DNA from: a virus
Reading direction: 5' to 3' (one strand)
IMG/VR virus record: IMGVR_UViG_3300030685_000003
Span: 6,156-70,155 of that record
DNA length: 64,000 nucleotides
In this document: one piece after another, positions 1,100 through 62,609 of the stretch
Layout of the letters: every line of letters begins with the position of its first letter
How positions within the stretch are numbered: position 1 is the first letter of the stretch
Translations under genes and position numbers: made by a program
The notes under the pieces: generated by a model
What the model saw: only the letters and a program-made list of their open reading frames with translations
Told to the model about the DNA's origin: nothing
Database searches by the model: none

Positions 1100-2491
1100 C
1101 TAATCTATTTGTTCGTATCTTTCAGAGTTGAGCGTCTTCAACATTACTCCAATAGGAGTCATATCTTCACCACCCAATAATCCCTTCATGATAGCTGGAG
1201 ATGCTCCAGAGACTAGTGCAACACCATTTGCATTATATGCTACAGGTGAGTTACCTTGCCTTCCATTTACATTCCAGTAAACAAGATTCGGCATTTGGTA
1301 ACCAAATTGTTCGTATTGCAATCTGATAGCCTCATGATTTGTTAGTCATCCTACATTAGAGTCGTTGAACTCCATGTCAGAGATAACCAATATATTGTCT
1401 GGCATATCAGCAGCTGTTAGATTAGAAGCTAGCGCTGTATTCAATACTAATTGAAACGCTGCTTGTAGATTTGTGTCAAATCACACAGGCCCAGCAATCT
1501 CTCTAAATCTTTGGCAAGGAGATCCTTGCAAGTATTGCATTCTAGGTTCTGATGTGAACGTGATGAATGCATCCTTAAATATAGACTTGTTTCTTTCCGC
1601 TAGATATACTCACAATGATATGGAAATGTCCATCGGAGTCAAGTTATTGTTACCATATGAGCTATTCATTGATCCAGATACATCTACCATAGGTAAGAAG
1701 GATTTTCCTTCAGGCACATAGTTAGGTAGGTTAGCCCACTGAGCATTGATAATAGTTGGATTTTCTCATTTATTATATGATTGATACAACTGATAAGGAA
1801 ACAATGTCCCAGCCTTGATTGCTAGCGGATCCTTTTCGATGAATTGATTGAATCTTTCCTCGTCGTGTCTAACAAATGCTTTCTTATATTTATGGAATGC
1901 TTGAGATGGAATCTTTTCGTATTCAATAAACGCCCATTGATTAGCAGACATTTGTTGCTCAACTACCTTAGTGTTTGCTACTAGGAATTTTCTGAATGCT
2001 TTTGGAGATAATTTGAGATGCTTTCTAAAGTACTCAAATATTTCGCCTTTTCTAGGCATCCATTTACATAACAATCCTATCTTACTTTCTTTTGTATGGT
2101 CAGTATCTGGTGAATGCATCCATTCAAGGATATATTCTAATGATGTATCAAAAAGATCATCCCATCTACCATATTCTGGCACAAATTTGTTGTATTTTTG
2201 AAGCTGTGCTTTTGATAAAGAATTCCAGATAGTTCTAAAGAATCTTCTTTCTCCAGCTCATCATCTGACATCTCTAGCCCAGAATAAACATCTGAACGCT
2301 AGCTTCTCATCTTCAACAAGTGCAGAGGTCCACATAGAAAGGATATCCTTTTCAGACATATTTCTAGAAGCTCCCGCTATGAAGAAAAGATCTACAACAG
2401 AGTGTAGAGAAGTTGAATTTGTTACTGCTCCATTGGCAGTTAATGAATCATGCTGTCTAGCAGCGTTAACGAATGGTGATTGTGAGATCAT
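1100..2491 (-). CDS. DUF2828-family helical + vWA domain protein (TROVE/Ro60-like architecture), 463 aa
   Basis: Three supplied fragments join with TGA=Gly; motifs LTANGA, WARDVRGGAGER, EYGRWDDL, KWMPR, YEKIPS, vWA MIDAS DVSGSM, SDMEF, VYWNV, VSGAS. Confidence 0.85.
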
Positions 2492-2506
2492 GGTGTATAT
2501 AGTTTT

Positions 2507-2583
2507 ACAGAACACAGTTTGCTGGATTTGGACCAGCTCGCTCCGAGGAGCTTCAACCAGTTTAGTTATGCTGTATGTGTTCT
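2507..2583 (-). ncRNA. Y-RNA-like array unit A
   Basis: AGAACAC/GTGTTCT-GT terminal stem, then atACAGCAtaac; internal hairpins including T-arm-like gctgg-tccaaat-ccagc. Confidence 0.7.
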
Positions 2584-2601
2584 TTAAATAAAGATCAAAT
2601 A

Positions 2602-2723
2602 ACGGGACGCATTTCTTAAGTGCTCTAACCAGACTGAGCTACCAACGCCTTGCGACGCTAGGTTGGATTTGAACCAACGACCACTGCTTTAATAGAGCGT
2701 AGAAGTTATGCTGTGAGCGTCCC
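2602..2723 (-). ncRNA. Y-RNA-like array unit B (YrlA-like permuted tRNA module)
   Basis: GGGACGC/GCGTCCC-GT stem, tcACAGCAtaac, then T-arm gttggTTCAAATccaac, acceptor-like stem closed by GCAA, D-arm tagctcagtctggttagagc. Confidence 0.82.
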
Positions 2724-2735
2724 TTATATTTATTA

Positions 2736-2851
2736 ACAGGACAGGATTTTAAGGCGTCCTAACCACTAGACTACGTGTGCCTTGCGACACATAACGGGAA
2801 TCGAACCCATGTCTCCTGCTTGAAGTGCAGAGTTTATGCTGTTACTGTCCT
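2736..2851 (-). ncRNA. Y-RNA-like array unit C (YrlA-like permuted tRNA module)
   Basis: AGGACAG/CTGTCCT-GT stem, taACAGCAtaaac, T-arm atgggTTCGATTcccgt, acceptor-like stem closed by GCAA, D-arm tagtctagtggttaggac. Confidence 0.82.
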
Positions 2852-2870
2852 TTGATTTGTTTTACCCTAA

Positions 2871-2976
2871 ACAGGTCACGATAAGATGGCTTGCGCCAAG
2901 ATTATTGTGTAGCGAATCACCACTACGGGATCCTTGCGGACTGGAGATTTTTGGGTTGGGTTGCTGTGTGTGACCT
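2871..2976 (-). ncRNA. Y-RNA-like array unit D
   Basis: AGGTCAC/GTGACCT-GT stem, acACAGCAa; three internal hairpins, two with GCAA tetraloops. Confidence 0.72.
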
Positions 2977-2985
2977 TTGAGATAT

Positions 2986-3040
2986 ACAGGAGGCATTGGT
3001 TTTAGCGTTACAGAGCTTATAAGTTTGCTGTGAGCCTCCT
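2986..3040 (-). ncRNA. Y-RNA-like array unit E (minimal)
   Basis: AGGAGGC/GCCTCCT-GT stem, tcACAGCAaac; short insert. Confidence 0.68.
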
Positions 3041-3051
3041 TTGTTGATGAT

Positions 3052-4023
3052 CTAATCTAAATAGTAGAATGTATTTACTGCTGGGTACCAAGATTCTTTT
3101 ACTCATGGGGTACCAGTAACATATTTACCACTGATTTGTTTAGGTGTCATCATTCACTGACTGAAGTATACACATTTAAATAGATATCATTGTGATTTGA
3201 ATGCCTCTTCAACAGAACTAAATGCATAGAGATGAGTTCAAGGATAATAATTTGCTGGTTCTCTACTACAATCGCTATTTATTTTCCATTTCATTCATCC
3301 CCAATTATTGGCGAGATACCCACTAGCAGAAACAAAGTTTGCTCATAGATGGCTCTCTTTATATGACGATCATAACTGTAATTTGAATAGATCATATCAA
3401 GACCAAGTCTCTTGTGATTGTTTTTTTATCTTAAGAAACAATTGATCATTATGACATAGTGGAGATGTTCTTCAATTTATCCAAACTTCACAAACTTTAT
3501 TCATAAGTCTCAAGTCTAATCAGGTTAATATGGTCGTATAAACTGGCTTAGCACCTTTGATGTTTTGTAATCTAGACATATCAAAGTTAACTCATGGGCA
3601 ATTCTTCGGTTGGAAGTCTCAATGCCTCTTAATTTCCATTCAAGGATGTTCCTCATTGATTCGAGATATGATTGTTCTAATCATATTATATTGAGCCTCT
3701 GTTGGTAATACTCATGGTAGATTGAAATTTCAAACAACCTCAATCTGTATTGAGTCAAGATTAGCTTGTGCATTTCTAGTTCCTCATACAGCTATGTCCA
3801 AATCATTTACTTTCACAAAGTCTCAAGAACATCATACTATAAAGTGTGCTGGTATGTGCTTCATTTTTCAACTAGCAACCCGAGTTCAACTCATTGACTT
3901 CTCCATCTGCTTGGCAGATAAACAGTTTGGGGTACCAGTATTATGAATAATAATATACTTATATCACCTTACTATTGTACTGCTCCTGTTTGTAGGGCTG
4001 ACAGAGTTCCCTGTTCTAAACCC
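3052..4023 (-). CDS. N-acetylmuramoyl-L-alanine amidase (Amidase_2) + glucosaminidase/lysozyme-like domain, probably reached by -1 frameshift
   Basis: YIIIHNTG, AHFIVG, SIQIEVVGNF, PTEAQY, RHGDF..KNCPG; C-terminal KESHLG..NNWGGMK..FSSVEE; no in-frame ATG upstream of the first catalytic His. Confidence 0.8.
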
Positions 4024-4265
4024 GTACCTGTCGAAGTACCGTTTATAGCATCGAATAATTTACTGTCAATCCTCTGTATGTTTTCATCGTACGCATCAAT
4101 TTTTGCTTGTGCTGCATCTCTTATAGTAGTCTGTTCTAGTTTTAGGTTTACATTTTCAGCCTTATCAAGATACAATTGTTCAATAGGAGAGTTATGTCTG
4201 AAGAAAGAAACCAGTAACATGACGAATAAGAATCCAGCAATTCAATACGGAATATACTTTTTCAT
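3972..4265 (-). CDS. N-terminal transmembrane + coiled-coil protein (97 aa; zero-frame partner of the amidase)
   Basis: MKKYIPYGIAGFLFVMLLVSFF signal/TM; contains G_GGT_TTA near the 3' end. Confidence 0.75.
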
Positions 4266-4301
4266 GAAGTAGAATAAATTCTAAAGCCCATAAATAAGAC
4301 A

Positions 4302-5213
4302 CTATTTTTTTACCATCGAGTATGCTATACCCCAAGATAAACAAAAGCCTATAACTATAAGACTCATGTACGTCGGTATATGGAATCCAAAGATTCCTGA
4401 TATCATTTTTGCTCATATGAAGAACAAAATAATAATAACTGCATGACTAAGGTATTTAACTTGGTTACCTACTGCCTCCAATATAAAGTATAGAGATCTT
4501 AGACCAAGTATTGCAAATATATTGGAAGAGAATAGGATGAACTTATCTGACGTGATTGCTAATACAGCTGGTATAGAATCAAAAGCGAACATAACGTCTG
4601 CTATCTCAATAACTACCAAAGTCAAAAACAACGCAGTCATAAATAGTTTTCAGTTTTCTCTTACAAAGAATTTGTGTCAATCTAATTTTGGGTAAACAGG
4701 TAGTATTTTTTTTAGAAATGTAGCTATCTTCCCTTTAGAATAATCAACTTCGTCTTGTTCTCAACCATCTGACATTAGCTCTTTGAGCATTTTAATAGCA
4801 GACCAAATAACAATAAGACCGAAGATAACTAACACAACTGGTCAAAGTGACATTAGCCACGCCCCAGCAAAGATAAAACACATTCTTAATACGATTGCAC
4901 CTAGTATTCCTCGGTATAAAATTCTATGTCTATACCTTTGAGGTATAACGAATGATGAGAATATTGCCATCATAACGAATAGATTATCAACCGACAGTGA
5001 TTTCTCTAATAAGTAACCACTAAAGAAATTCATTGAAGCGTCCAGACCCATTGAAAAATATATATACACATTGAATCCTACAGCCAAAGCTATCCACATA
5101 CAGCTTTCTATAGCTGCTTGTTTCAAAGATATTGCTTTATCTTCCTTATGCCTTAGATGATCAAATGTCAACGACGCTGCAAGAACCACAAACATAACAA
5201 TGTAATGTCACAT
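4302..5213 (-). CDS. terC: TerC/Alx family membrane protein (303 aa)
   Basis: GYLLEKSLSVDNLFV, HRILY(W)GILGAIVLR, IEIADVMFAFDSIPAV, SNIFAILGLRSLYF. Confidence 0.93.
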
Positions 5214-5503
5214 TATCTTTTTGCCGACAATAAAAAGCTAATGTAAGACACTAAGATAACGGCACATATGATGAATGATAACATCCCGCTAAACATAAAG
5301 AATACCAATAATGGAGCCAATACTAAGAATGATCTAATAGCAGTATTATTGTTTTGATCCCATCTTACGATAAATCCATTGATTAAGTTAACCAAGAATC
5401 TAGTGAAAGGATTTCTCTTTGTGGCACCAAGCCATAGTTGGAATTTGTTTGCGTAAATTTGTCATAAATGTTTTTCAATAAATTTGAGTATAGTATTAAA
5501 CAT
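5213..5503 (-). CDS. small membrane protein (96 aa)
   Basis: Open with TGA=Gly; hydrophobic C-terminal helices; stop overlaps the terC start. Confidence 0.7.
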
Positions 5504-5531
5504 TCCTAAATAGGGGGTAAGAATAAAAGAA

Positions 5532-5554
5532 AAGGGTGGTGGTTAGCCACCCTA
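5532..5554 (-). terminator. intrinsic terminator after terD
   Basis: agggtgg..ccaccct hairpin followed by a T-rich tract on the minus strand. Confidence 0.65.
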
Positions 5555-5559
5555 ACCTA

Positions 5560-6087
5560 CTAAAGACTTTCAGCTACTTGTGAAATGTCTCCGTCAATGT
5601 AGTCTCCCATTGCTGTGAAAGCATAGTTGTCACCTGAGTCAACAACCTTACCTACTACTACAGCAGTATGAGCACCACCTTGAGCCAATACATAAGTTGC
5701 AAGAACTTCGTTTGTTTCTTGATTGTATACAGTTGCCTTAGCATTTGCAACATCAGAGAACTTAACGTTTCCTGTGTAAATATTTACACAGATGAAGTAC
5801 TCACCATCACCAGATTTAGTGGCGTCCATTTTAACGAATTCATCGTCTCCATCTCCTGCACCAGTTCTATTGTCTTCTGACAATTCGACCCCAGTAATAG
5901 CAGTTCTAGCATTGTAGTATGCTACTTTCTTTGCTCCATTTGCTTTTTCAACAATGAACAAATCAAGATCTGCAGTAATTCCTTCTTTAACGTCCCAAGA
6001 GAGACCTACTCTAATTTTTGAGATAGATGAACCATCTGCTTTTTTGAGGTCTAGAGTTTGACCTTTAACCAAGTTGAGTGCTTTCAT
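5560..6087 (-). CDS. terD: TerD family protein (175 aa)
   Basis: LNLVKGQ, VGLSWD, DLDLF, DNRTGAGDGDDE, F.AMG. Confidence 0.92.
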   Translation of the reverse strand: MKALNLVKGQTLDLKKADGSSISKIRVGLSWDVKEGITADLDLFIVEKANGAKKVAYYNARTAITGVELSEDNRTGAGDGDDEFVKMDATKSGDGEYFICVNIYTGNVKFSDVANAKATVYNQETNEVLATYVLAQGGAHTAVVVGKVVDSGDNYAFTAMGDYIDGDISQVAESL

Positions 6088-6118
6088 GTGTGTGTAGAAA
6101 AATAGGATAAAAAAGATT

Positions 6119-6191
6119 AGGTTGTGTATCGGATTCGAACCGACATCTTCCGCTTACTACGCGGATGTTTTTCCATTAAACTAATACATCC
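6119..6191 (-). tRNA. atypical tRNA-like gene, anticodon AGT (Thr-type), poorly paired acceptor stem
   Basis: D-arm tagtttaatggaaaaac, tccgc-gtAGTaa-gcgga, gtcggTTCGAATccgat; acceptor has mismatches. Confidence 0.6.
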
Positions 6192-6424
6192 ATATAGATA
6201 TACCCCTCACGTGGACTACTCACTAGTTTTCATCCACGCTACTCATATATTGTGACTTGATACATAATACCTATCGTCGCCCAAACTCCGCCACTTGTCC
6301 GCCTACATTGTTCGTACACTCCATCATATACCTCTACCCCTACCCTCCGGTGATCAAACCATACTCTCAGTTACCCATATATGACTTGCGGACACCCTGA
6401 AACCCGTTCTTTATAACGGGGATA

Positions 6425-6452
6425 GTTATAACCCATACGTACTTTTTTGCAA
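6425..6452 (-). promoter_or_regulatory. sigma70-like promoter for the tRNA/ter/ncRNA region
   Basis: TTGCAA-N16-TATAAC on the minus strand. Confidence 0.65.
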
Positions 6453-6459
6453 CACTTTT

Positions 6460-7254
6460 TTATTTAAAATCCAACTCTGTGAATGGCCGTGGTTTGTTTT
6501 TATATTGTCTAACCTCGTTTTTGAGCCATGTACGGTCTCTATCGTTTTGTAAATATCAAACGTAGATCTCTTTGATTGCCCATAATGTACCTAATTCTAA
6601 TGACTTATTATAGTACGGATTACAAATAGATTCGTTTTCATCTTGTTCGCGTTCTATACCTCTACATATCATACTGAAAATCCCGAAGAATCCAACAAGC
6701 TCTTGTGGCAGTTTCTTCTCCGTCTGTCATTTGCGATCAGCTTTTTTGTAAGAGAATCTATACTTCATTCCAGGGATAGCGATGATCTCTTTTAAAATAT
6801 AAGAGAAATCCTCCCAAGTCATTCTATACAAATTTCATTTAGATTTAAATGTATTGCTGATAAAGAACCCACTGATCCAAGAATCTAACGGAAATTTAAC
6901 AAACCATAGATATGGAGCATATATACGAACCTTGTTTATATATACGAATTTATTGAATGCTCATCTTAGTAGGACGTTATTGTTATTGTAGGACTTGATA
7001 ATATCTTTGAGTCAAAGTGTTAACAATAATTCTATAATAGATAGCCCTTCCTCATTAGTCAATTCTTCTATAAAGATTGGACGTAATGATAATTTCTTCC
7101 CCGTCATAGAACAGACAGGGATGTGTGTTTTACAGAAAGAGTTAGCCTCCATACCGTCCACAGAGTCTTCTTTGTAAAATATCAAAGACCCCTCGGCTAC
7201 GGCATGGTTTGGATAAACTATTTTTCACTCACTATTTAGGTAGATCATTGTCAT
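6460..7254 (-). CDS. hypothetical protein (264 aa)
   Basis: Open ATG..TAA with TGA=Gly; start overlaps the end of the primase-helicase. Confidence 0.7.
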
Positions 7255-9896
7255 GATTTTTTAGATTTAAATTTCATATAGTTGATAGTCTGGTCAATCT
7301 CATCAATCAATCAAGATGTTCATGTCATTTTAGTCTCTAGTATTCTTCTTAAGTTTAGTAGAGATTGACGTGTCCCTTCTTCGCACTCATCAATATCTGA
7401 TGGGATCCCAGAAGTATTTAAGAATGCCTTGAATATATACCATAGTTGTGGCTTCTCCTCTATATACTTGAAGTCTACGTAACACGCCTGTCAAGGTCTA
7501 GCCTTATCAAAATGTTCGTTGATTGTCTTGAATGTAGATATTATATCCATTTTGAAAGCGTCTGAGAACCTAGACATATCAAGATTTATATCGACATAAC
7601 AACCACCATTACAGAATTCTACCAAGCCCCTATGGACATTGAAGTGATTGAACAATACGATATATTTATTTGCGATATCGTCTGAATCATCTCTAGATAA
7701 TTGATCGAACATAGCATCAACAAGATACCCTTCATAATCTCATAATCACATTTTTCTAGCTATAGCTATAATGAATCAATAGCATTGTGATGTTCTATAG
7801 GTATCTCAATAATCTTTCCCAGAGGAATCAATCTTTATAACTAATGCGTCCTGTACAGAAAGCCATTCATCAACTAATCAATTGATCCCTGTCTCGTCCT
7901 TAAATATTTCTAGGACATTTCCAAGAATATTCCCCGGTAGTTCCTTCATGGCTTCTAGTCATCATGCTAACATTTTTCTTTTAGCACAAACGAGACAGAT
8001 ATTTCTTGAGACGGCTGCGGCATCATGGAATTTTGTTTGTCCATCAAATATAAACTGTCAAGAGATTGGGATACTAACAGTACTTAGTGTCTGCGTTCCC
8101 TTCATAATATTCTGTCAGTCGAATGCTGTTCTTACTAGCGATGTTACCGCAGCAGAATTTTTCAGGGCATCATTTCTAAATTCTTCTATACTGATAGGAA
8201 CGCTATGTCTTAATGAGGATTCCAAAACAAATGGAGATGATGCGGCGGGGACACTGTAATGCATACCGAACATCTTATCTAGCAATAATCTTTTGATAGT
8301 TGTTTTACCTGAGGCTTTCATTCCTTCGATAAACATACCTGGGATCTGTAGACGTCTGTCTCTAAAGAATTTTGAGTACACCAATCATATTCACATTAAG
8401 AATAGGGGATAGATAACCTTAGGCTCATATATTCTAAATAAGATATTTACTATCTCATCTCGTGACATATTAGTTTTCCCTGGTTCGTCTATCTGATCTT
8501 TGTTGGAATCAACTGTCCCTACATCACAATACAATCCGTCCATTATATACTTACCTCATGTCCTTACTAGGAATCTCTTCCCAAATATTTCTTGAAGTCA
8601 TAGACTTTCAGTATGCTCATACTCAGTACTTGTATTAAGGATATATTGTCTCAGCAATTTGATTCACTGAACATTGGTGATACAATCTACTCACTGTTCC
8701 ATGATCATCTTACTAAATTCTCATGCAGCACTGAACGGCTTAAGTGTGACAATGTTAATACCTTTGTTACTATCAATCTTTACAATTATTTTGCTACCGT
8801 CTGAACCTCAATCCGGACGTTTATTTATCTTAAAGAATCCTATTGGCTCTACGATTCCTGCTACTAATTTCTCTACATTTTCTCAGTTCTTCCCGTTAGA
8901 GATGAGGACCATTTCTTTTCTTACCTTATCTACTCTGATCTGAGTAGATGCTCAGTATCCTATGATATATGTATCCTTGTCGATAATCTTGATATTGTTT
9001 GAGTCTGCATTGATTGTAGCTAGTCTGTCTTGATATTGCTTGATAGCCTCATCACATTTCAAATCATAGTTAGATTTGAACCAGTGGATCAAATCCGGAA
9101 GCGAAGATATATTGAGAGCTTGTTTGGCTATTGTGTAGGCATTACCTCTAGGCTTATCCAAGGTAGTATCTGCTGTAAAACAGTTTACCGTGTTTCTAAA
9201 CTTATGATAAGCATATCCATTTACTTCTCAAGTCTTCGTATGAATTGATCAGTCTGGCAGAGTAGTGAACTTCCCTCATGATACTTTCTCTAATACATCA
9301 CTGGCGTCGATAGACTCGATCTCTTCGAAGATCTGTTTGATGTCTGGCCATTGAATGTATTTTTCCTTATCTTTACCATACTTCCATAGGATCTCATCGT
9401 ACCCTATAAACATAGAAGTAAGATCCGTAAGCGAGTATTGAGCATCGAAAGTTTTGATAGATATTTCTTGATCTCCTGTATTGTCTGCCCAGTATTGAGT
9501 ACTTGGCATAGGGAATCCAGTAGGTATGATCGCTCAGATCCTCTTGGCAATATTTGATGAAATCTTTTTGATCGCATCTTGATTTCCTACCTTGCTGTAC
9601 TCCTTATCTAATTTAATAAAGATATATTTTCCCTTAGGTGAGGTTATTATCATAGATGGAGCAAACAATCCCTCTCGAGTCTTATTGGCCCCGTCGATGA
9701 AAAAAGATAGTGTGTAAATACTATCTGAAACTATGCTAAAGAATATATCTTTCTTTTTCGCTGGAGAGTTCTGTATTTCTATATCATCTATGAGGCATGG
9801 ATCTTGCTTTCATTTAGCAACTCAAGCCTGCATAGAATAAATATTTGATCACGGAAACCCGTCCAAAAAAGATTTGATTTTATCTGCCTCAATCAT
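7236..9896 (-). CDS. primase-helicase (N-terminal primase-like, C-terminal P-loop NTPase), about 886 aa
   Basis: Four supplied fragments share one frame; Walker A FIEGMKASGKTT, Walker B-like ISIEEF; sits in the replication module. Confidence 0.72.
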
Positions 9897-9922
9897 CTAT
9901 TTTATTCAGGATATAAATAGGA

Positions 9923-10243
9923 TTAGTCTTCTAGATGATCTGGCTTGTTATAGTAGCTATATAAAGAGAACATAGATATGATCTGCTCTTTAGTTACTCA
10001 ATCTGTCCCAGTGAAATCTATAGTAGATAAAGACATTTTTTTACATCAGTTTACAAATTTCTTATAATCTTCTGGTCCTATACATTCCTTGAATAAATTT
10101 GGCTGTCCCGTCAATCTTATTTGATGACTAGTAGGCGCAATGAAAGAGACTAACTCTGATATAAGTTGATTAGCGATATACTTATTACTAACTAATTTAT
10201 TAACAACACTTGCAATGTCCTTTCTAGTTGCCGTGTTAGCCAT
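9923..10243 (-). CDS. hypothetical protein (106 aa)
   Basis: Supplied ORF extended through TGA to TAA. Confidence 0.65.
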
Positions 10244-10352
10244 AATAGTTTTCCCTATAAAGTAGGGATCTCAATCTTTTGATATCTTAGCTTTGAAATA
10301 TATCTTAGAGTCATAGTGCTTTGTATTCTTTTGTTGCATGGGGAGGGGAAGA

Positions 10353-10880
10353 TTAGATTCTAAAATAATTCAATCCGAGTACATACTCATTTAAAAATTT
10401 AATAACTTGGATAGCAGGATATGTTTCATCATACAGGATTATTGTTTCCTTACCGTGTTTATTGATAACCGCTCTATGGTCTGAATGACTGAACTCAATG
10501 AAGTGATCAACGTCTATAGTTCGTCCTACTGTTCTCATACTACCATAAGAATGTGATTGCCCAGCACCTTGTGCAGCATAACATACCGTTCTTATAACAT
10601 CACAGAATTGTTGCCCAGTAAATTCCTTCATAAGTTTAGTTGCTTCTTGATGAGCTAGAAGTCCAGGATTGACTTTCTTTTCTGGTACCTCTTCTAGGGT
10701 TGGTGGTGTTTCCTCTTGTGGAGGTATAACCGCTTGAGCAGATTGTTTTGCTAGTTCTTCTTCCTGTTCCTTTGTAACTTGTTGGGCTGATTCTTGTGTC
10801 GCTAGTCCTGGAGCTAACTGTTCTGCAGCAGCTTTATCTACTCAATTGTCAATTGCAATTTCTCGTGGGTTGATTGGCAT
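10353..10880 (-). CDS. hypothetical protein with acidic Pro/Gln-rich N-terminus (175 aa)
   Basis: ATG at 10880 is in frame with the supplied 10353..10631 ORF via TGA=Gly. Confidence 0.65.
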
Positions 10881-10903
10881 GTGTATTAAGTTAATTATAA
10901 AAA

Positions 10904-12208
10904 TTATTCGTAATCTTTCATATCAAGATATGTGAAGTTATTTGTGTATGTTTGATACGCTCTCTTTCTGGCGTACCATTGATTCTCCGTCATTGAAGAA
11001 TTATCTACTATGTCGTATATATTTATCTCTTGTTTCCCTTCAAAAGATCTCATTGCTCTTCCCGATGCTTGTATAACATTAGCTGGCTCTCTACCTGAGA
11101 AACAGACTATAATTGTATCTACTGCTGGATTATCGAATCCTACTCAGAGGATTTGTCTTGTTGCTACCAATACTCTTTTTTCTTCAAATTGCAACATAAT
11201 TTCATTTCTTTTTTTTGTGGTAGTTGTGGCAACTATGAATGGGATATCAAGTTCTTTTCAAAATCTCTCGGAAGTCTCAGCTCTGTCAGTCATGATAAGT
11301 ATTTTTTTGTTTGCTGATAAAGACTTCTTTACTAGTCTTTTCACCACATCTATTTTTTCTGGGTTTGCTTCTAACATTGTCTTAAGATTATTCCAATCAG
11401 CATACTCATCGAATAGTGTCTTGAGTTTTATCTTAGTAACCCTTATGTCAAATTGAGAGATAAGAAACTCTCTATATTCATAAGCATCTACTATTCTTCC
11501 CCAAAATTTTAGGAAGTCACCATACTTAAATCAAGACATATCAGGAGTTCAAGTCATAGCATACTTATATTGACATTGGGTCTCTATGATCATATTTCTG
11601 TATGTGTTTTTGATGAGTAGATGTGCTTCATCGAATATAGTTATATCCCATTCCCCATTATATTTTTCTAAGAATTTTTTGTAGGAAGCATAAACAACAA
11701 CCGTTATGTCATTGAATTGTTTCTTCATTCCATAGTAGATACCTACTTGTCATGGGAATTTTTCTTCTAATGATGCTGATAGTTGTTGTGCATTCATAAT
11801 TGTATTTGTCAATATAACTGTCTTTCATTTAAGCTGCCCTATTATCCAAGCAGTTGTCACCGTCTTACCGTATCCAACATCGGCGTATAAAAGACCGTAT
11901 GGTTTCTGGATAAGTTCTTTCTGTGGTCTATCCTGATATCGTCTAAGTACTGTAGTATCGTGTATTGTAATAGGCTTATTTATTACTGACTCTACCTTTA
12001 TTCCGAAGTGTTCACAAGCAGAGATATTACACTTCCCATTCCTAACATTCCATAGTGGATAGAAATCTGGTTGCATATATCAGGCCTTCTCATTGATCCT
12101 AGTTAGCTTTTCTTTCTTGTAATTTTCTGTACGCAAAAAAGATTTAGGATTAGCGAAGGTATTTAGTTGTGTTATCTCTGCAAGAGTTATTGATCAGTTA
12201 TGGAGCAT
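10904..12208 (-). CDS. superfamily 2 (DEAH) helicase (434 aa)
   Basis: ADVGYGKT, IFDEAH, AMTGTP, GVGFD, QASGRAMR. Confidence 0.92.
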
Positions 12209-12270
12209 CGTAGACAACAGGAGGTAAAGGTTGATTAGAATAGATAGACGTGTGCTATCTAGCTATTCTA

Positions 12271-12290
12271 ATGAACCCTTACGGGCTCAT
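12271..12290 (-). terminator. hairpin/terminator after ssb
   Basis: tgaaccc-ttac-gggctca stem-loop directly after the stop. Confidence 0.45.
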
Positions 12291-12293
12291 TGA

Positions 12294-12611
12294 CTAGAAC
12301 GGTAAATCATCATCATTCTTTGGTGCTGATGTAGTACCTCAAATCTTTTCTAATTTCCAACAAGTGATAGCATTGAAGTATCTACCTGCTTGAGTTTTAG
12401 ATTCATTAGCCCTGCTGTTGAGATTAACTAAGATAAGATCTCCTTCCTTTACTCCTTCGAGCAAACCAATCTTGTCTCTAAAGAAATCTACTGCGAGACT
12501 TCCTTTGAATTCTCTATCTGTATTCTCTTCGAGAACAACAGTTTGTTTTTCTAGATCAGCTCCGATAATTTCTTTCGGGCAAATTGTTTTAACGATTCCT
12601 TCGAATTGCAT
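12294..12611 (-). CDS. ssb: single-stranded DNA-binding protein (DUF3127-like OB fold, 105 aa)
   Basis: EKQTVVLEE..LAVDFF..GRYFNAITCWKLE; acidic tail NDDDLPF reached only via TGA=Gly. Confidence 0.85.
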
Positions 12612-12759
12612 GGTGAAATAAGTGTAAGAATAAAATACTAATTTATTGGAGTAGCTCCTACAGGTTACCGACAACAGAGCTAACGTTTCGCGACATTGAT
12701 ACTTGCGGGATCAAGACGGTTTTACGATGGTGCATTACTACATCCACCTCCAATGGTGA

Positions 12760-13140
12760 TTACTTCTTAGCGATGATGATTGCTTTGTATACATTGTCTC
12801 TGTCGCTTTCATCAGAGTATGTGATTATCTCTTCGAATCAGCCCATAGTAACTATCTTTAGTACAGGCTTGAATCAGTCTTGTTCTACCTCAGCGGCTAT
12901 AAGAGAGATGAGAGATGGATTGACCCAGTTATTACTCTGGACATGGATCCGAGGCACCGCACTCTTTACTAACTTAAATGCATCATCTCTTTCTATTTGG
13001 GTATCATATCAGAAGTCTAGCCATTCTCAATTAGAAAGCCTAGCTGATATAAAATATCTACCATCGTGTCAGGTATATGTTTGTACCCATGACATTAGAT
13101 TGGGTACAACCCATATCCTTCATTTGAGATTTAATAGCAT
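12760..13140 (-). CDS. hypothetical protein (126 aa)
   Basis: Open ATG..TAA with TGA=Gly. Confidence 0.65.
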
Positions 13141-13152
13141 CGGATTAGATAA

Positions 13153-13689: not shown

Positions 13690-13709
13690 GATAGTTGGTT
13701 GAATATAAA

Positions 13710-14426: not shown

Positions 14427-14441
14427 TGTGATAGGGTGCAA

Positions 14442-16335: not shown

Positions 16336-16343
16336 AACTAGAT

Positions 16344-16577: not shown

Positions 16578-16601
16578 TAGTGCAAAATATAAATTAAAAA
16601 T

Positions 16602-49400: not shown

Positions 49401-52400
49401 TGAACTCTCCTCACTTATTGTAAAATATGGTAAACTTACTGATGATATGGTAACAGATATGTCCGCTGTTTCTACAAAAACTAACATATATTTACAATGA
49501 TGGTTTGGAATTTGAGGTAAGGTAAATCCTGTAATTAAGCCGCTTAGCGAAGTAGTGGGAGGATACAAGACATTCTTTTCTGAACTATCAAAGGTAAATA
49601 TGTATCAGGGGAAAAGAGAGGTTATTGATCTTTCGGAAAAACTAAAGATTCTTACTGAGTCATCTTTTTCTGAAAAAAATATAGTAGATAGATGATATTC
49701 TATTGGTAAATCCCAAGGATTGAGTAATATAAACTCAACTTTCGTGAACATAATTACAAATTACGATGGTAATCAAAAGAATTTTCTAAAAGAGTTTGTC
49801 TCTATCTATGGAGATAAGGCATTTACTCCAGCAGAGCTTAACTCATTCAAGGGTATGCTAAACATAACAGACTGATACAGAAGCCAATACAATCAACACC
49901 TTATTGACACTATTTTCAAGGATGGTGGTATTGATGTGGATAAATTAGAAGCATTTGTTAAATTAGGTGGTTGGATGGGAAGTACAGACAACAAACTTTG
50001 AGTTGTGTTTGGGGGATTCTCTCTATCTAAGAGATATCTCTATGAATGAAACAAAGAAGCATACTGGAATTCCTTCGAACAATCTCTAAAAGATTTTGAA
50101 AAATCTGGTGATTCTTCTCTCCAAAAGTTAGCTAAAGATTTCTATTCTCAATATAAAGGTACTGGGGATTTTTTCTCAGATATGGCCGGAATGTATGATG
50201 AAATTAACGATGGGATAGAAGAAACATACTTCAAATCTTATAGGGATTCTCTAAATGATATGGATATACAACACCTTTCTGCGGAAATAAATACAAATTT
50301 CCCTGGGTACAAGGAAGAATTGGCTGATTTGGTTGGTAAGGGAGACGCACAAGGGGTTATCTCTGCATTGAATTGAATTATTGATGATACTAAGGAAAAT
50401 ATATCTAGTAGATTCCTATTAAACCCATACGAATATATGATAAGTTCTTGAAATAAAGAGAATGTTCTAGCAAATATTATGAATTCATTCTTTACTACTG
50501 ATGAAAAATTCGGTAAATTTCAAGATACTTTGTGAGTAGAAAGAGGCCAAAAATCTATGAATGTATTTGGAGATATGTCCTGGAGATCTAAGATTTTGGC
50601 TGATGAATATGTTAATAAAAAGTTATTTGATACTTTTAAGAGACAATCTGTTGATCTCTGAGGGGATTGAGTTATATTAGTGTCTAATATTGATGAATTG
50701 AAAGATAGATTAAAGGATATGTTTACTTATGGGACATCTAATGAATCTAAAATGGAGAGAAATTCCATATGAGGTGTTTCTAATACCACAGATATGTCAG
50801 CTGGTAAGCTAACAGATGACTATACTCAGAAGCTATTTGATGAACATTCGCAAGTTCTATGAGATGTCGGGGATTCTATACTTCATGATGATCAGAGTGA
50901 TGTAGATGTATTAAGGACCGTTACAAATAACATAGTAGCCAATACTCTTTCTAGAGAAGGTAACGATATTATAGATAAAATGTTCAAAGAAACGTTGTCT
51001 AACCTGCCTGATGATGAATATAAGGCATCTAGAAAACTTATCGCAGATAGTTATGGTCAAATGGTACAAACGTTTGATGACAATTTGTCATTATATGCTC
51101 GTGATAGTAAGATGGGTAAGATAGAAAAACAATCTCTATCTGATTATCTAATAGGCACTGACGGTAAATGAGGTATTTTCTGAGGAGCTGTTGATAAATT
51201 GAAAGATAAGCAATATCAATCCCAATTTTATGGTCAGCTTATAGAAACATATGATAAAAACACAGAGCAATTCTCTATTGTTATGGGTGAATGAGGTAAA
51301 TTTGATAGCGCTTTGGTAAAATGGTTCTATCCTATTTATAGAGCACTCCAAAATACAGAAGATGGGCAAGAATTATTCAGAAAAATCAACAATCTAAATA
51401 CTAGGGCTATGGGTACAGATATGTACCTAGATATGAATAAGATAAGAGCATTCCAAGCACTAGGTGTTTGATCCGTAGAATGAAATATGTTTACAATTGG
51501 TAAAAATACCTTCGAAATTGGTTCAAATATCAAGGCAAGTGCTATGAATAGTTTATATTCAGAAGTATTAGATAGATTGAACAATGGCGAGGTTATCGGT
51601 CAGTTTTCTCTTCTGAAAAAAAACTTCAGTGCCTCAGAAATGCATACTATAAATACCATGGTAAAGTCTATGTATGATAAATACGCTTGAGACGCAGCTA
51701 TGTTTGTACCAGTATTTAATAAAGAAAACAAATTAGAGTTCGCATCTGAGTTTATATACTCATTTTGGAAAGATTTTTATGATGGATTAAAGAAGAACAA
51801 TGCCTATAGATCAGAAATAGGATACAATAAACTAACTGCAGATTATCCTAAGTATATAAAGGAAAATGTAGAACAACAATTCTTCAACTCCCTATCTTCT
51901 GAGGGGAAAACAAATATGACAAGATACGGTTTGAATGTGAAAGGACCAACAACTCCTATGTGAATGGAGACTCAAATGAATGACATCTTAAATAGAGTAG
52001 GATTTGGTACTGAATCCTCTAGAGCTGTAGAAGGTTTCCTATATAAGGGATATAAAAACTATGGAGGTATGATGAAAACACTTCAATGATTGAGAGCTGG
52101 TATGTATACTATGCTGTTCAATGCAATGCAAGTTCCAAAATTAGCTCAACAAGCGGTAACTCAGGAACTTAAGTTTGGTGGACTTAAGACCGTTGTATGA
52201 GGTCTTAAGGATTTCGATAGATGATATCTAAACTACATAACTAAGAGTATTGATTACGAAACGTCTTTCTTCGACAAAATCTCCGATAGTGTAGACAGTG
52301 CTATAGACGCATTTGAAACTACCCCTGTAACAGATCTTATGAAGAAGGGGCTTAAATACTCCTTGAATGCTATGGAATTGTCTGATAAGTTGACTCTAAA

Positions 52401-55026
52401 TAGAGTCAAACAGGCTGCTATTATAGGCTCTGCTCAAAATCTTGGACTATCTCCAGAGGTATTCAAGGAATATGGTGTAACTAGAAATGTTCTTGCTGGG
52501 CTTCTTGATGGGTTATCTAAGAATACTGATGAAAATTTCAGATCTGTATTGGATCCTATTATAGAAAAAGCAAATAATTGATGGAGAATAAATGACAAGG
52601 ATATCAGATCTCTTAATGAATTCATAGAAATCAATTCATCATCTCTTCATCCAGATGATTTGAATGGATTATTGCAAACAAAAGGGATCTTAGAATCAGA
52701 CTATAACAATATTATTGATTTCCAAAATAACGTCAAATTCCTTGCTGACTGATATATGTCTTCTTTCTACCATGCTGGTAATAGGGACATGACTATAAAT
52801 GCAGCTGGTATGCATATGTGGTCTGAGTTTGCACTCCCGTTATTTAACTGGGCAACTAAAGAATTATCGACCAATCTCGGTGATTTTGCTATGGAATTCT
52901 CAAATCTTACTGCAAAATACGGTACTACATCGGAAATGCTTAAATCAAAAGACTTCTATTCTGAATTGATGTCTATGCCTGCATTCCTAAATTTGGCTGC
53001 ACAAATAGCTCAATTTGGGATATATTACAGAAATGTTAATAAGTTAGTGTATGCTAACTCTGAGAATGATGAGATTAACTTTGGTGCGGCAATGGCTGGG
53101 TTTGTTGGTCCATTCGCGGCAGCATCTCAAATATTATCTCCAGTATCTAAAGCAGAAAAAACATATGAGATTCAGAAAGACTTATGAGTATCTACATACG
53201 ATGCTATTATAAGTTCTGCACAACAAATGGGTAAAGATTTCGGAAACTTATTCTTGAAGGATGCTGGTATGATATATGACATGGCTTGAGAAATATGAGT
53301 TACCGCATCCGATCTTAGCTCAAAATGATTTGACGGTCAATATAGTATGCTTTCTGACGTTCTATTGCCTATAATATTAAACAAGGCTAAATGATCAATC
53401 GTTAAAGGTACTATGAATGTTTACAGAGGGTATGAAACCGATACAAAGTGATATGATATTGGTCAAGCATTAAATCTTGCTCTCTATGGTAACTTCACTC
53501 AGAATTGATTGGAGAACCAAAAGTCTATAGATCAGTTATTTGTGCTTAAGCAATTAGACAAAACTGCTTCAGCTGGTATATTCGAGACATCTTCTTCTGC
53601 TTCATTTATGCCTAATCTAGGTATTGAGAATAAAGTGTTTCAAAAGACTATGTGAGATACGGGAATTGATGACTTGTTGACAGCTACTGGTGACTATGGT
53701 AAAATACTTGATGGCGTTACTGGTGGTGAAGGGGTTGATAAAGATGGTAATCCTAATTATAAAGCTGGTACTCTCTTCAAAAATATGGTTGACACATTGA
53801 AATGAGAGTGAGTAAAGGGTAATGCCGGTTTGAAACAAATGTCTGATGAGGAAATAAAATCACAAGAAACAGACGTTTTGAATAAAATCACTGATGGTGG
53901 TAAACTTGATCTGTTATCTAATGCAGATGACATCAAGAGTAGAGTACTTACTTACAGAGGTAGATTCTCAGCATCATTTGCTTATGGAGTATTGTTGGAT
54001 GCCACAGCTAAAAAATATGCAAAAGATCTAACAGCTGGAGATAAAAAGTCGGCTACTGCAACGCTTAAAGGTATGTTTGGGAAAAGCGTCTATTCTAAAT
54101 CGTTAGAGAAGAAAGATATAGATACTCAAATGGCAGCTATAACTGATGAATTTGCTAAAAAATATTACTGAAGTGCCGTTGCTTATAATAAGCAAGTAGG
54201 TATAAATGCAACTATGCTAGCTGCAAAAGTCAACTGATACGATGTGGCTAGTCAATGAGGATTGAATGCCGTGGTTTCTACAGAACTATTTAGTAGAGCT
54301 ATGAAGCAAAACGGTAATAATTATGTAGATGGTATGAATAAGGTTGGTAATTACTTCTGAGTACTTATGAAAACCTATTCTAAAGAAATTGATTCTATGG
54401 TAAAAAAAGATCCTACAAAATTTGTATCTTGGATGAATACAACTACTAAGATGATAGATCTATCTAGCAAGAGTGATATGGAGAAAACCTATATCAAGTG
54501 AGGTATGTTGAATGCTATATGAGATAATGTGGCTAAAGTTATGGAGTCTTCTCCAGATCTTGCTGCAAAATATAAGGATGTGTGAGCATTGGTTGCTTGG
54601 AATATGCTAGATAACTCAAACAGACTTACAAAAGATGCTGCAATAAAAGCTACGTATGATGACTTCTGATTGACAGTAAAAGCTGGTAAATGAGCATCAC
54701 CTAAAGTAAAGTGAGTATCTGCACAATCATTACGTGATACAGCTCTTAAAATATTAAACATAACCAATACACCTTACAAATTTATATCTTCACAAATATC
54801 TAATGGTTGATCAGTCAGTAAAATCCAGTGAGTTGCCTTTGGTACAACCTGAAATTATAACATTAAATGACCTTCCTTGAAATGATTGACAACACAGGGA
54901 TTGACAACAAAATGATTATCCTCAGATAATATCAAATTGAAATCAGGAAGAGTCACATCCACTAAAATCGTATGAGTGACAAAACCCAAAGCAACTAAGT
55001 CGTACAAGAAAACTCTTAGAGGATAA
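46408..55026 (+). CDS. giant virion/ejection protein (about 2872 aa)
   Basis: Ten supplied plus-strand fragments (46795 to 53830) share one frame and end in TGA; first TAA found at 55024-55026. Confidence 0.8.
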
Positions 55027-59997: not shown

Positions 59998-60333
59998 ATG
60001 TCTCAAAGAATAGCTAGGTATATGCTTAACAATACAGACCAACCATCCAGCAAATATAATTGCCATCATATTATCTGACAATGCAATAGAGATCTCTATA
60101 ATATCTTTCGTGAAGAAAATATGATGTCTGTGAGTAGGAGTCAGCATAAATGATATAATTATTTTGTAGGAAACGAAAGACAAAATCCTAGGTGATTATT
60201 TGAAACAGCTTATGAACGAACCCACCCCGTTCTAACTGACTATGCGCAAACATTACTAAGAACTTTGGTAGAAATGCCCGATGATCAATTATATATCCCA
60301 GAGATGATCAAAAATAAAAAGAAACCTTGATAA
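59998..60333 (+). CDS. HNH-like protein (111 aa)
   Basis: NCHHII..N....QH pattern. Confidence 0.5.
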
Positions 60334-60354
60334 AACCAAGCGTTTGATTATACT
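60327..60354 (+). promoter_or_regulatory. sigma70-like promoter for the lysis module
   Basis: TTGATA-N16-TATACT. Confidence 0.65.
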
Positions 60355-60384
60355 TCCAGCAGTTTTATATCCGCTTCACTCGCC

Positions 60385-60855
60385 ATGACATTAGAAAGCT
60401 GACGACATTACTTTGTAAAGCTAGTTGCTAACTCCTTTGTGTATAAATTACTAGCAGGGTCGCTAATAGCATTCATTAGCATTATAACTCCTACAGAATA
60501 TATCACCTTCCATGTCTTGTTTTGGTTATGGACGGCATCTATGTTTTTTGGGACTATAAATGGTACCCTAAATTATGGGTTCAATCTCAAAAAATTCTGT
60601 ATGTGATGAGCAAAAATAATGGTTTATGGTGTATTGATCTATTTTGCAAAAGCATTAGAGATTGTAACTCACCTAGAGATTTGGATGGACGTATTCTCTG
60701 GATTCATGATATTTGAGCTTATGTTATCTATATTTAAACACTGTGCAGAATTGGGTATTCCTATGCCAGTAAAACTTATTGACTTTGTGAAAAATCAAGA
60801 AAAAGAGTTTGAAGAAAAATATTTAGATACAGGAAAAGAAAAGATAGAGAACTAG
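60385..60855 (+). CDS. phage holin (holin_4_1-like, 156 aa)
   Basis: Several TM helices; GVSKIMVYGVLI, ELMLSIFKHCAELGIPMP. Confidence 0.75.
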
Positions 60856-60976
60856 TTTTACATATCTTATGCATATGCCCTCGATAATCTTAGTATTGTT
60901 TATGTGCTATTGAATATGATTATTTATACTACATCTACACGATCACGGAGACCCATTTTATATTAAGAAGAAAATT

Positions 60977-61162
60977 ATGTCAAAAATAACACCAGTGGTT
61001 GCAAAATCAACCCCAAGAAAGGAATTTTTACAAAACGAGATCAAAAAAATTACAACAGAAATTGAGTCCCTAACATCTACCGGTACTCTAGAAGAGGATC
61101 CAGGTATTCTTACTCTAAAAAAAGAGTTAAAATTTAGACAAGATGATCTTAAAAGCCTTTAA
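60977..61162 (+). CDS. hypothetical protein (61 aa)
   Basis: Supplied ORF, ends in TAA. Confidence 0.55.
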   Translation: MSKITPVVAKSTPRKEFLQNEIKKITTEIESLTSTGTLEEDPGILTLKKELKFRQDDLKSL

Positions 61163-61181
61163 ATTCTAACAAAACATAGTT

Positions 61182-61448
61182 ATGATCGCCATATTAAAGA
61201 AGATTAGAGACGCATTTGTTACCCTATCGTGGATTGACCAGCTCGTTGATGAAAAACTCATTTCTAGTGTCACTGCTAGAGCTATTGAAGGAGGAATTTA
61301 CTCATTTTACTTCGGAATTTTGACATATCTATATAATGTTATAGAAAGCGGGAGTTTTGGAGATTACAAACTTGCAATAGGAGCGTTATTGATATGATTT
61401 TGAAAAACACTAATTGAGTGTACTATGAAATATTTTAGAAATAACTAA
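61182..61448 (+). CDS. small membrane protein (holin-like, 88 aa)
   Basis: Two hydrophobic segments; extended via TGA. Confidence 0.55.
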
Positions 61449-61456
61449 TCTCTAAA

Positions 61457-62095
61457 ATGACAGCTGAAGAAAAAATCAAGGCTATAATGAAAAATAGATT
61501 TTTTGAGGCAAAAGATTTCCCGAAGAAATTTAAGATGATAAAGACACCATGTCCTCAGGCTAAGCTACATACTCAGACAGAGCCAAACTGCTGGTTATTC
61601 TCTTGATTCAATAATATGTCGCTGAATCATGGGGTGTATATAGATGAACAAAAGGCTATTGATTTTATGGGCCAATATGGTATGGTTATGAATAATGGAG
61701 GATCAATTGCTGCAGGAGCTATGATGCTTGCTGAGTATGCGTCAGACATAAATAACGATTATGTCGTATATAGTCTGAATGTTCTTACCCAAACAAAGAT
61801 TTTTGCAGAACTATTGAATGCCGGATGGTGGTTTATGTATGCTAGAGATTGTGCATCTGATGTACTTGCTGATATAGCAGACAACTGAAAATTAGACAAA
61901 CTACACTCAGGCATCACTAGTCCTCATGCTGTGAATATATGAGTAGTACCTAAGGTTGGACTTAGAGAACTTGGTAGTTGGGGTAGTGCTAGTATCTATA
62001 ATGATTTTATGTATGGTACTCCACAACTATTCATCCAACTGGTTAGATCTGGAATGATCGAGCAAATAGTAACATTTATAGCTAAAAGACAATAA
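61457..62095 (+). CDS. papain-like cysteine peptidase (212 aa)
   Basis: YTQTEPNCWLFS (Gln..Cys), PHAVNIG (His), LGSWG. Confidence 0.65.
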
Positions 62096-62096
62096 G

Positions 62097-62609
62097 ATGG
62101 ATAGAAGCCAATACTACTATTTTGAAAAAGAATGGGTATGAAAAAGAATTGACTACGATAAGGCGTTTTGATACCAATGCGTGGATCTTATAAAACAATA
62201 TATGTACGAGGTATTATGAATTAGCCCAGGGAAGACAGGTAACGCTAATGAAATGTGGACTAATAAATATGGATGCTTTGACAAAATGTGGACTCAAATA
62301 ACATGAACTAAGGATTTAATGCAAGGAGATATTATATTCTCTTTGAATGGACCCACTGGGCACGTAGCCATAGTTGATCGCATAGTTAATGGACAAATAC
62401 AGGTTTTGGAACAGAACGGAAGCGGGCAAAATTCTGGAAACTGACTAGGGGCAAATGCTATAAGACTTCATACATATAGTCCATCTTTCTTTGTTTGAGT
62501 TTGGAGGTGTGAGAAAATATTTGAGAATCTCCAAAAAGAGAGATCATATTGTGATGTACAAATCAAAACTACGCAGGACTATAAAGCATCTATAAGATAT
62601 CAAGAATAA
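62097..62609 (+). CDS. CHAP-domain endolysin (170 aa)
   Basis: IDYDKAFGYQCVDL, GNA, GDIIF, GHVAIV, VLEQN. Confidence 0.9.

Follow-up and report, generated by a model that had tools for sequence, protein, structure and literature searches.

Glycine at TGA and tryptophan at CGA in a tailed-phage genome most likely written in the code of an Absconditabacterales host

The 64,000-nt stretch of DNA analyzed here (the window, to which all coordinates refer) comprises bases 6156–70155 of the 70,155-bp virus record IMGVR_UViG_3300030685_000003, which is classed as complete and has direct terminal repeats that we measured at 124 bp. The window has a GC content of 35.5%, and its gene content in Pfam comparisons identifies it as a tailed phage. 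A minus-strand arm contains Pfam matches to DUF2828/DUF7788, an amidase, TerC, TerD, an XPB-like helicase, a PD-(D/E)XK nuclease, RecT and an HNH endonuclease. On the plus strand, a second arm comprises glycosyl- and methyltransferases, GroEL, the large terminase (TerL) and an SU10/P22-type portal, together with a scaffold-like acidic protein, a probable capsid protein of SU10 type, a DUF2793 protein and open reading frames (ORFs) of 2872 and 1000 amino acids. We consider it very likely that this complete genome, with its SU10-type portal and capsid, is written in the code of its host lineage, the order Absconditabacterales (SR1) within the Candidate Phyla Radiation (CPR), in which not only TGA but also CGA would have changed meaning.

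An earlier reading made from the letters alone (below, the sequence-only reading) had proposed that TGA is recoded to glycine throughout this genome and had suggested a comparison of coding densities. With non-overlapping ORFs of at least 60 amino acids taken greedily over the window, coding density is 50% under translation table 11 and rises to 91% when TGA is a sense codon, vs 67% and 68% when TAG or TAA, respectively, is read as sense. The stop codons are TAA and TAG. Across the 94 ORFs of the whole genome, 517 in-frame TGA codons stand beside 944 GGN codons, and, judged from the alignments below, TGA is a glycine codon that supplies ~35% of all glycine codons. The individual sites quoted by the sequence-only reading all lie where it had placed them, including TM[TGA]PKG (codon 31, starting at 32590) and DA[TGA]DGTT (codon 84, starting at 32749) in GroEL, RDVR[TGA][TGA]AGER in the DUF2828 protein, V[TGA]SRKLGKS in the terminase and CP[TGA] in the amidase; the exonuclease end CEGCQFKI[TGA]CEG and the DDDLPF tail of the SSB-like protein likewise extend beyond a TGA, as it had claimed. 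When GroEL is aligned with Thermus thermophilus GroEL (4v4o), glycine stands opposite 10 of the 16 TGA codons, among them those in the invariant GP(K/R)G, AGDGTT, GGVAV, GGG and GI(I/V)DP motifs, while the remaining six are opposite Ala (2), Ser, Asp, Leu and Val, and none is opposite Trp or Cys. Further comparisons with PDB structures aligned the helicase TGA sites with the archaeal XPB residues T, E, A, D, S and D, in variable and thus uninformative columns, and gave a single weak match for RecT, from which nothing could be learned at TGA sites, and no match for the amidase.

Profile scores and family alignments agree with the GroEL comparison. When each protein was translated three times, with Gly, Trp or Cys at TGA, and re-scored against Pfam, the sums over 12 families were 1025.2, 929.2 and 932.0 bits, respectively, with Gly highest in 11 of the 12. 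In the same order, the scores were 208.4, 174.9 and 172.0 bits for Cpn60 (GroEL), 80.1, 70.1 and 74.5 for DUF2828, 34.9, 26.5 and 22.3 for Amidase_2, and 106.3, 103.7 and 100.2 for RecT. In an alignment of TerC with 150 representatives, just one of which has an inflated Trp content, three of the six TGA columns are 70–88% glycine (103/147 at column 179, 120/149 at column 188 and 130/148 at column 267), and column 151 has a glycine plurality (28/148). Some sites weigh against glycine: DUF7788 prefers Trp over Gly by 2.3 bits, Terminase_6N, for which only these two residues were compared, does so by 1.0 bit, TerC column 124, which lies beside an alignment gap, is mostly Phe (104, with Gly 8), and TerC column 2, possibly upstream of the true start, has a Trp plurality.

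Comparison at the codon level was made possible by two metagenome contigs found with a degenerate DNA pattern, L059 (4.3 kb) and L060 (8.6 kb), which share with the phage the gene order GroEL/TerL-portal-scaffold-capsid at 58–88% amino acid identity. In codon alignments to these relatives, the 98 phage TGA cells face 39 TGA and 34 GGN codons, and no TGG or TGY. TGA conversely stands opposite 43 of the 191 phage GGN cells vs 19 of the 3492 cells with any other codon (Fisher p=8e-43), although the cells are not independent events because TerL enters twice, once per relative. The sequence-only reading had named a TGA that aligns mostly with Trp, or with no consistent residue, as the outcome that would speak against it, and the complete absence of TGG from the 98 cells, together with the GroEL sites, the Pfam sums and the TerC columns, upholds glycine instead. 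Per ~700 amino acids, database homologs of TerL contain 15–57 Trp, and their Gly count falls as low as 10 (one homolog has 57 Trp and 12 Gly in 703 amino acids). Since these homologs are so rich in Trp, and since W and G alternate within columns, the source pipelines evidently translated TGA as Trp.

A second REASSIGNMENT, absent from the list of the sequence-only reading, is visible in this TerL alignment: CGA (and CGG) as tryptophan. At four of the seven columns where the phage has TGG, the TerL homologs alternate between W and R only, and at the 34 phage Arg columns they have R in 180, K in 26 and W in 4 of 306 cells. The CGA and CGG codons of L059 and L060 lie opposite phage TGG in nine of ten cases and opposite TAT in the other; counted by cell, CGA or CGG occurs in the relatives at 8 of 39 TGG cells vs none of 131 AGA/AGG/CGT cells (p=4e-6), and in L060 one CGG is opposite phage TGG in the conserved TerL motif PIN-W-FY. 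The phage itself has 44 CGA and 10 CGG codons (2.27 and 0.52 per 1000 codons) beside 176 TGG, and every CGA that could be tested, one in TerC and four in the TOD1/MUCI70-like glycosyltransferase, lies in a column of 57–93% W+Y+F. The TerC codon (codon 101, 4911–4913, in the motif LY[CGA]GILGA) aligns with W 89, Y 38, F 11, L 5, R 2 and I 1 among 149 representatives. The glycosyltransferase was compared with 14 homologs, its own database record excluded, giving W 9, Y 3 and R 2 at codon 99; W 8 and R 6 at codon 195, with W in all four of the most distant homologs, which have normal composition; Y 12, K 1 and C 1 at codon 204; and R 6, W 5 and F 3 at codon 229. The R entries in these columns come from Trp-inflated homologs, i.e. 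from recoded relatives. As a control, Trp does not exceed 1% in any of the columns that contain the 17 AGA, AGG and CGT codons of TerC and the glycosyltransferase, and several of these columns are 100% Arg. Reading CGR (CGA or CGG) as Trp raises the profile scores of TerC by 4.4 bits (157.7 to 162.1), TOD1_MUCI70 by 7.5 (20.7 to 28.2), Amidase_2 by 2.2 (to 37.1), RecT by 1.1 (to 107.4) and phrog_4273 by 2.3; the DUF2793 score does not change, as the CGR site falls outside the match, and a 167-amino acid protein with three CGA/CGG codons has no homolog besides its own record. On the evidence of these columns, CGA is a tryptophan codon in this phage, and CGG is a demonstrated tryptophan codon in its close relatives only.

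These observations bear on the translation table that the sequence-only reading had assigned, NCBI table 25, of which TGA as a sense codon for glycine stands, but not the implied standard meaning of all other codons. Were plain table 25 to apply, with CGA and CGG still arginine, the aromatic columns would be due to chance or to R/W substitutions, and we regard this as unlikely, although it gains from several points that weigh against tryptophan: informative columns were available for only 5 of the 44 phage CGA codons; CGR as Trp lowers ResIII by 0.9, GT2 by 0.1 and phrog_1574 by 0.2 bits; several CGA codons sit amid basic residues; and of the 10 phage CGG codons the RecT site is the only one that could be scored. 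Chance would have had to bring all five testable CGA codons into aromatic columns (among the 149 TerC representatives, no more than 2 have Arg there), keep all 17 AGR/CGY control codons in columns of at most 1% Trp, and prevent the CGR codons of the relatives from ever falling opposite any of the 131 phage Arg-codon cells. With CGA, and presumably CGG, encoding Trp, table 25 would still mistranslate ~23% of the phage Trp codons (54/230).

The reassigned codons are spread over the genome, with two exceptions for TGA. It accounts for 0.34 of the glycine codons in both the replication/lysis arm and the GroEL-to-tail block and for 0.38 in the middle block, and it is present in 81 of the 94 whole-genome ORFs. 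The proposal that all gene classes are recoded therefore holds for the blocks but not for every gene, since two genes, and no others, are significantly TGA-free and have identical translations under the standard code: the capsid gene, where none of 33 Gly codons is TGA (p=5.5e-7), and TerD (0 of 18, p=3.9e-4). The amidase gene is at the opposite extreme to the capsid gene, with TGA at 20 of 26 Gly codons (p=1.9e-5). In the relative L060, the capsid gene has four TGA and one CGA. CGA and CGG are less evenly used, making up 7% of Trp codons (6/80) in the GroEL-to-tail block (32500–62609) vs 28% (22/80) and 39% (12/31) in the two earlier blocks (1100–32477). Because the capsid gene avoids reassigned codons and the late genes are low in CGA/CGG, these patterns suggest that reassigned codons are decoded less well under high demand.

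As the sequence-only reading had also argued in favoring a CPR host with UGA as glycine, the recoding is not a late-gene switch, an explanation we reject because the TGA share is even across blocks, because no release-factor gene of the RF-1 family was found in the phage, and because tryptophan at CGA must be supplied by the cell. Aminoacyl-tRNA synthetase genes were likewise absent among the proteins scanned with Pfam, although no search was aimed at them. The last of the three reasons follows from the phage tRNAs. All nine score above the Rfam gathering threshold for tRNAs, and none of them has the anticodon UCG, CCG or ACG according to ARAGORN. Without a tRNA of its own for these codons, the phage cannot itself impose tryptophan on CGA and CGG.

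The phage does encode a tRNA(UCA) cognate to TGA, and its acceptor stem is unexpected for a glycine tRNA. In all nine Gracilibacteria and Absconditabacterales genomes compared, the bacterial tRNA(UCA) has G1:C72, C2:G71, G3:C70 and U73. The phage tRNA(UCA) has G1:C72 and U73 but, to the detriment of a simple glycine assignment, lacks C2:G71 and G3:C70, so that with U2:A71 and C3:G70 it departs from the Gly identity rule as described by Shulgina and Eddy (PMC8629427); its discriminator U73 also excludes it from the bacterial Trp type. A DNA search of 401 genomes, moreover, gave tRNA-Cys(GCA) genes as its best matches (84% over 37 nt, positions 30–66), and its anticodon arm resembles that of tRNA-Cys, although much of the match falls in a T arm that several tRNAs of those genomes share. 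It has no match in GenBank phages, and none was found in a pattern search of viral contigs. Because phage TGA never behaves as Cys, this tRNA presumably carries glycine through relaxed or different recognition. The arrangement of the tRNA genes partly parallels that in the putative host order: in one of its genomes (G338; L093, L107) tRNA(UCA) belongs to a Cys-UCA-Ala(UGC)-Tyr(GUA)-Arg-Glu cluster, and four further genomes have UCA-Ala-Tyr-Arg-Glu with Ala and Tyr in varying positions. The succession UCA, Ala(UGC), Tyr(GUA) of G338 recurs in the phage array, with sequences that are not close. The ninth phage tRNA, a tRNA-Thr outside the array, has two acceptor-stem mismatches as drawn by ARAGORN.

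For the host, the sequence-only reading had named Absconditabacteria or Gracilibacteria, and a lineage with UGA as glycine is retained here, but the meaning of CGA (and of CGG in the relatives) narrows the choice to Absconditabacterales. The code, a shared SSB-like gene and the similarity of GroEL together make this order the most likely host. We searched a genome collection for the GroEL motif A-G-D-G-T-T-T-A-T-V, using a degenerate pattern in which the first Gly is TGA. It matched four stretches only: two in Gracilibacteria metagenome-assembled genomes (MAGs), one in a MAG labeled ‘Patescibacteria group’ and one in an Absconditabacterales MAG (G004), whose order is represented by 141 genomes, one per species. 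In a DNA search with window positions 1–20000, the SSB-like gene was matched in 53 of these 141 genomes (E≤1e-5, 66–79% identity), the best match covering 318 nt at 76% identity (E=2e-61), with an amino acid identity of 81%. In that genome the gene lies between lspA-like and sua5/yrdC-like genes and is thus chromosomal. Within a 201-genome sample of the class, 17 genomes carry the SSB-like gene, at least 15 of which are order members (the carriers G079 and G170 are not among the order members listed), and the top 10 matches are all order members. One order genome has CGA at a conserved Trp of this gene. At its codon 11, three order genomes have TGA, and the phage and a fourth genome (L080) have the Cys codon TGC. 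GroEL was matched in 181 of the 201 class genomes, and the best 12 matches (471–531 bits, 46–50% identity) are all order members with in-frame TGA. Finally, all five order genomes examined encode tRNA(UCG) and/or tRNA(CCG) with G73 and A1:U72 or G1-U72, which by the rule given in PMC8629427 would be Trp-type, and one such tRNA is 10 nt from tRNA-Trp(CCA).

Against this host assignment stand the dependence of the order name on a single member contig, that of G004, a GroEL identity of only 46–50%, which implies that the relationship between phage and order is old, and several searches that found no closer link. The spacer comparison that the sequence-only reading had recommended gave no array-borne CRISPR spacer match between window positions 1–64000 and the 141 order genomes: 13 short matches and one of near-spacer length were inspected and proved to be AT-rich coding sequence with no flanking repeats, two 48-nt matches were left uninspected, and the others (47–81 nt, 74–85% identity) were judged by length and identity alone. 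With one genome per species in the sample, the missing spacer match is weak evidence. No close prophage relative was found either, as the TerL profile matched one of 401 class genomes, weakly, and a single-protein GroEL search of genome contigs yielded no relative. The TerL alignment found nothing closer than two loci at 24% identity among viral contigs and nothing among metagenome contigs, the latter probably because the peptide patterns included W and G.

A host among the Gracilibacteria (BD1-5) rather than the Absconditabacterales would share UGA as glycine, would be as compatible with the lack of a spacer link, and could draw on the CGG=Trp reassignment predicted for some Gracilibacteria (PMC8629427). 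We nevertheless find it improbable, because CGA as tryptophan is reported for Absconditabacteria only in the accounts of PMC8629427 and PMC13092985, and because the best SSB-like and GroEL matches, 10 and 12 in number, all fall in the order of G004. Less probable again, and in our view very doubtful, is a standard-code host on which the phage imposes TGA read-through through its tRNA(UCA), in the manner proposed for the code-4 and code-15 gut phages summarized by Liu et al. 2023 (PMC10746230). The phage does encode such a tRNA, but early, middle and late genes use TGA to the same extent, it means Gly and not Trp, no release-factor gene accompanies it, tryptophan at CGA is beyond the reach of the nine phage tRNAs, and the SSB-like gene and GroEL point to Absconditabacterales. 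That TGA is tryptophan (table 4), as its rendering in the database TerL homologs and the small preferences of DUF7788 and Terminase_6N might suggest, or cysteine, as might be supposed from U73 and the tRNA-Cys-like anticodon arm of tRNA(UCA), is scarcely credible and rejected for both residues by the codon alignments, which already contradict it, by the GroEL alignment and by Pfam sums that lie 96 bits (Trp) and 93 bits (Cys) below that for Gly.

If the phage does follow the code of an Absconditabacterales host, its proteins would be made by the host translation apparatus, with TGA read by the host tRNA-Gly(UCA) in a cell without release factor 2 (a loss we take from the literature), and CGA and CGG read by the host Trp-type tRNA(UCG) and tRNA(CCG). 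The phage tRNA(UCA) would presumably add TGA-decoding capacity. We see about even odds for a broader proposal, in which the whole lineage (the phage, L059, L060 and the nine database TerL homologs) adopted CGA, and in the relatives also CGG, as tryptophan from its host together with UGA as glycine, and did so with no tRNA of its own to read the additional Trp codons. In that case, CGA-as-Trp would be a marker, legible in sequence alone, that separates Absconditabacterales phages from Gracilibacteria phages, and the phage tRNA(UCA) may be a newly evolved opal decoder that is charged outside the canonical rule of glycyl-tRNA synthetase.

Phages that use TGA as glycine are already a published kind. 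Liu, Jaffe, Chen, Bor and Banfield (2023, mBio, PMC10746230) described code-25 phages predicted to infect Absconditabacteria and Gracilibacteria, and 44 of their 50 predicted Absconditabacteria phages >20 kb are clearly code 25. The present phage is like these in its dense in-frame TGA, its large gain in coding density and a code shared with the host, but differs in that CGA encodes Trp (CGA, CGG, arginine and Codetta go unmentioned in the main text of that paper) and in how the host is linked, by CRISPR spacers there and by code and shared genes here. The code itself corresponds to that reported for Absconditabacteria by Shulgina and Eddy (2021, eLife, PMC8629427), with UGA=Gly and both CGA and CGG=Trp, whereas Gracilibacteria have at most CGG; PMC13092985 restates the same three reassignments for Absconditabacterales. 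Likeness extends to low GC, to a rarity of CGA and CGG within the reported ranges, and to the Trp-type tRNA(UCG)/tRNA(CCG) present in genomes of the order. The cases in PMC8629427 are bacteria, whereas here the carrier is a phage with no tRNA for the reassigned sense codons. In the portions of that paper drawn on here, the only phages mentioned are two assemblies that read AGG as Met, which likewise follow a sense-codon change of the host without encoding the decoding tRNA, but differ in codon, amino acid and host phylum and lack the combination with a stop-codon reassignment. Stop-recoded phages of standard-code hosts, as described by Borges et al. (10.1101/2021.08.26.457843), share in-frame stops and a tRNA cognate to the recoded stop; as also summarized in PMC10746230, they read TGA as Trp or TAG as Gln, concentrate recoding in late or lysis genes and often carry release-factor or synthetase genes, in contrast to the glycine meaning, even use and lack of a release-factor gene seen here. 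We found no published report of CGA or CGG as tryptophan in a phage, which would make this the new part, although the supplementary tables of PMC10746230 may list this phage or its relatives.

The features of the genome are collected in the table. Like SU10-type podophages, the phage has a portal that matches SU10_portal and a capsid protein whose look-alikes in a protein atlas are SU10_MCP (score 0.98, 27 of 30 matches, a lead only). The relationship is remote, as tblastn against 50,697 GenBank phage records matched neither the capsid protein nor an 886-amino acid protein. The capsid protein also had no match in Pfam or PHROG or among the viral contigs searched, and the 886-amino acid protein none in Pfam or PHROG. 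TerC and TerD, both of the tellurite-resistance family, adjoin in the phage (4302–6087), and TerC has DNA-level matches in two genomes of the order. Two small proteins have acidic SSB-type ends, DDDLPF (12294–12611) and DLDDLPF (14442–14678). Near the right end, a 170-amino acid ORF (62097–62609) has a 74–78% DNA match of ~80 nt in two order genomes.

Table. Features of the phage genome, with positions in the window and in-frame TGA, CGA and CGG codons.
Feature	Positions	Strand	Basis and remarks
8-tRNA array (Gln UUG, Trp CCA, UCA, Asn GUU, Ala UGC, Gly UCC, Tyr GUA, Ser GCU)	181–999	−	ARAGORN
tRNA-Gly(UCC)	538–611	−	Canonical G1:C72, C2:G71, G3:C70, U73
tRNA(UCA), cognate to TGA	774–846	−	G1:C72, U2:A71, C3:G70, U73; Rfam tRNA 53.4 bits
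tRNA-Trp(CCA), reads TGG	852–922	−	A1:U72, G73, canonical bacterial Trp features
DUF2828/DUF7788 protein	1100–2515	−	Pfam; 6 TGA, including RDVR[TGA][TGA]AGER
N-acetylmuramoyl-L-alanine amidase (lysis)	3052–3906	−	Pfam Amidase_2; 20 TGA vs 6 GGN; one CGA, one CGG
TerC-family membrane protein	4302–5213	−	Pfam; 6 TGA, one CGA
TerD-domain protein	5560–6087	−	Pfam; 0 TGA among 18 Gly codons
tRNA-Thr, unusual anticodon AGU (ninth tRNA)	6119–6191		ARAGORN; Rfam 49.3 bits
XPB/Rad25-like superfamily 2 (SF2) helicase	10904–12217	−	Pfam and PDB matches; 8 TGA, 1 CGA
SSB-like protein, MQFEG start, DDDLPF end	12294–12611	−	One TGA ahead of the acidic tail
PD-(D/E)XK exonuclease	13710–14441	−	Pfam, weak; last cluster Cys beyond a TGA
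RecT recombinase	14979–15926	−	Pfam; 6 TGA, 1 CGG
TOD1/MUCI70-like glycosyltransferase	31001–31735	+	Pfam; 5 TGA, 4 CGA (codon starts 31295, 31583, 31610, 31685)
GroEL	32500–34137	+	Pfam Cpn60; 16 TGA
Large terminase (TerL)	34137–36266	+	Pfam and homologs; 24 TGA, 0 CGA/CGG
SU10/P22-type portal protein	36338–38179	+	Pfam SU10_portal 47.8 bits; 8 TGA; 76% amino acid identity to L060
Probable SU10-type major capsid protein	39611–40981	+	Position after portal and scaffold-like gene; 0 TGA among 33 Gly codons, no CGA/CGG
2872-amino acid ORF	46408–55026	+	79 TGA; open only with TGA as sense

The double reassignment has practical consequences, as proteins of this phage family in public collections (P0008–P0016, P0019–P0029) are translated with TGA as Trp and CGA/CGG as Arg, and such mistranslation harms homology searches and structure prediction for CPR phages. 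To our knowledge, almost no Absconditabacteria are in culture, and the combination of TGA as Gly with CGA as Trp would offer a host signal that can be read from phage sequence alone. The idea that decoding efficiency accounts for the avoidance of reassigned codons in the capsid gene and the late genes is a testable prediction. Finally, a phage that tracks a sense-codon change of its host without a tRNA of its own bears on the view that changes in the code protect cells from phages, a protection that here is evidently not conferred.

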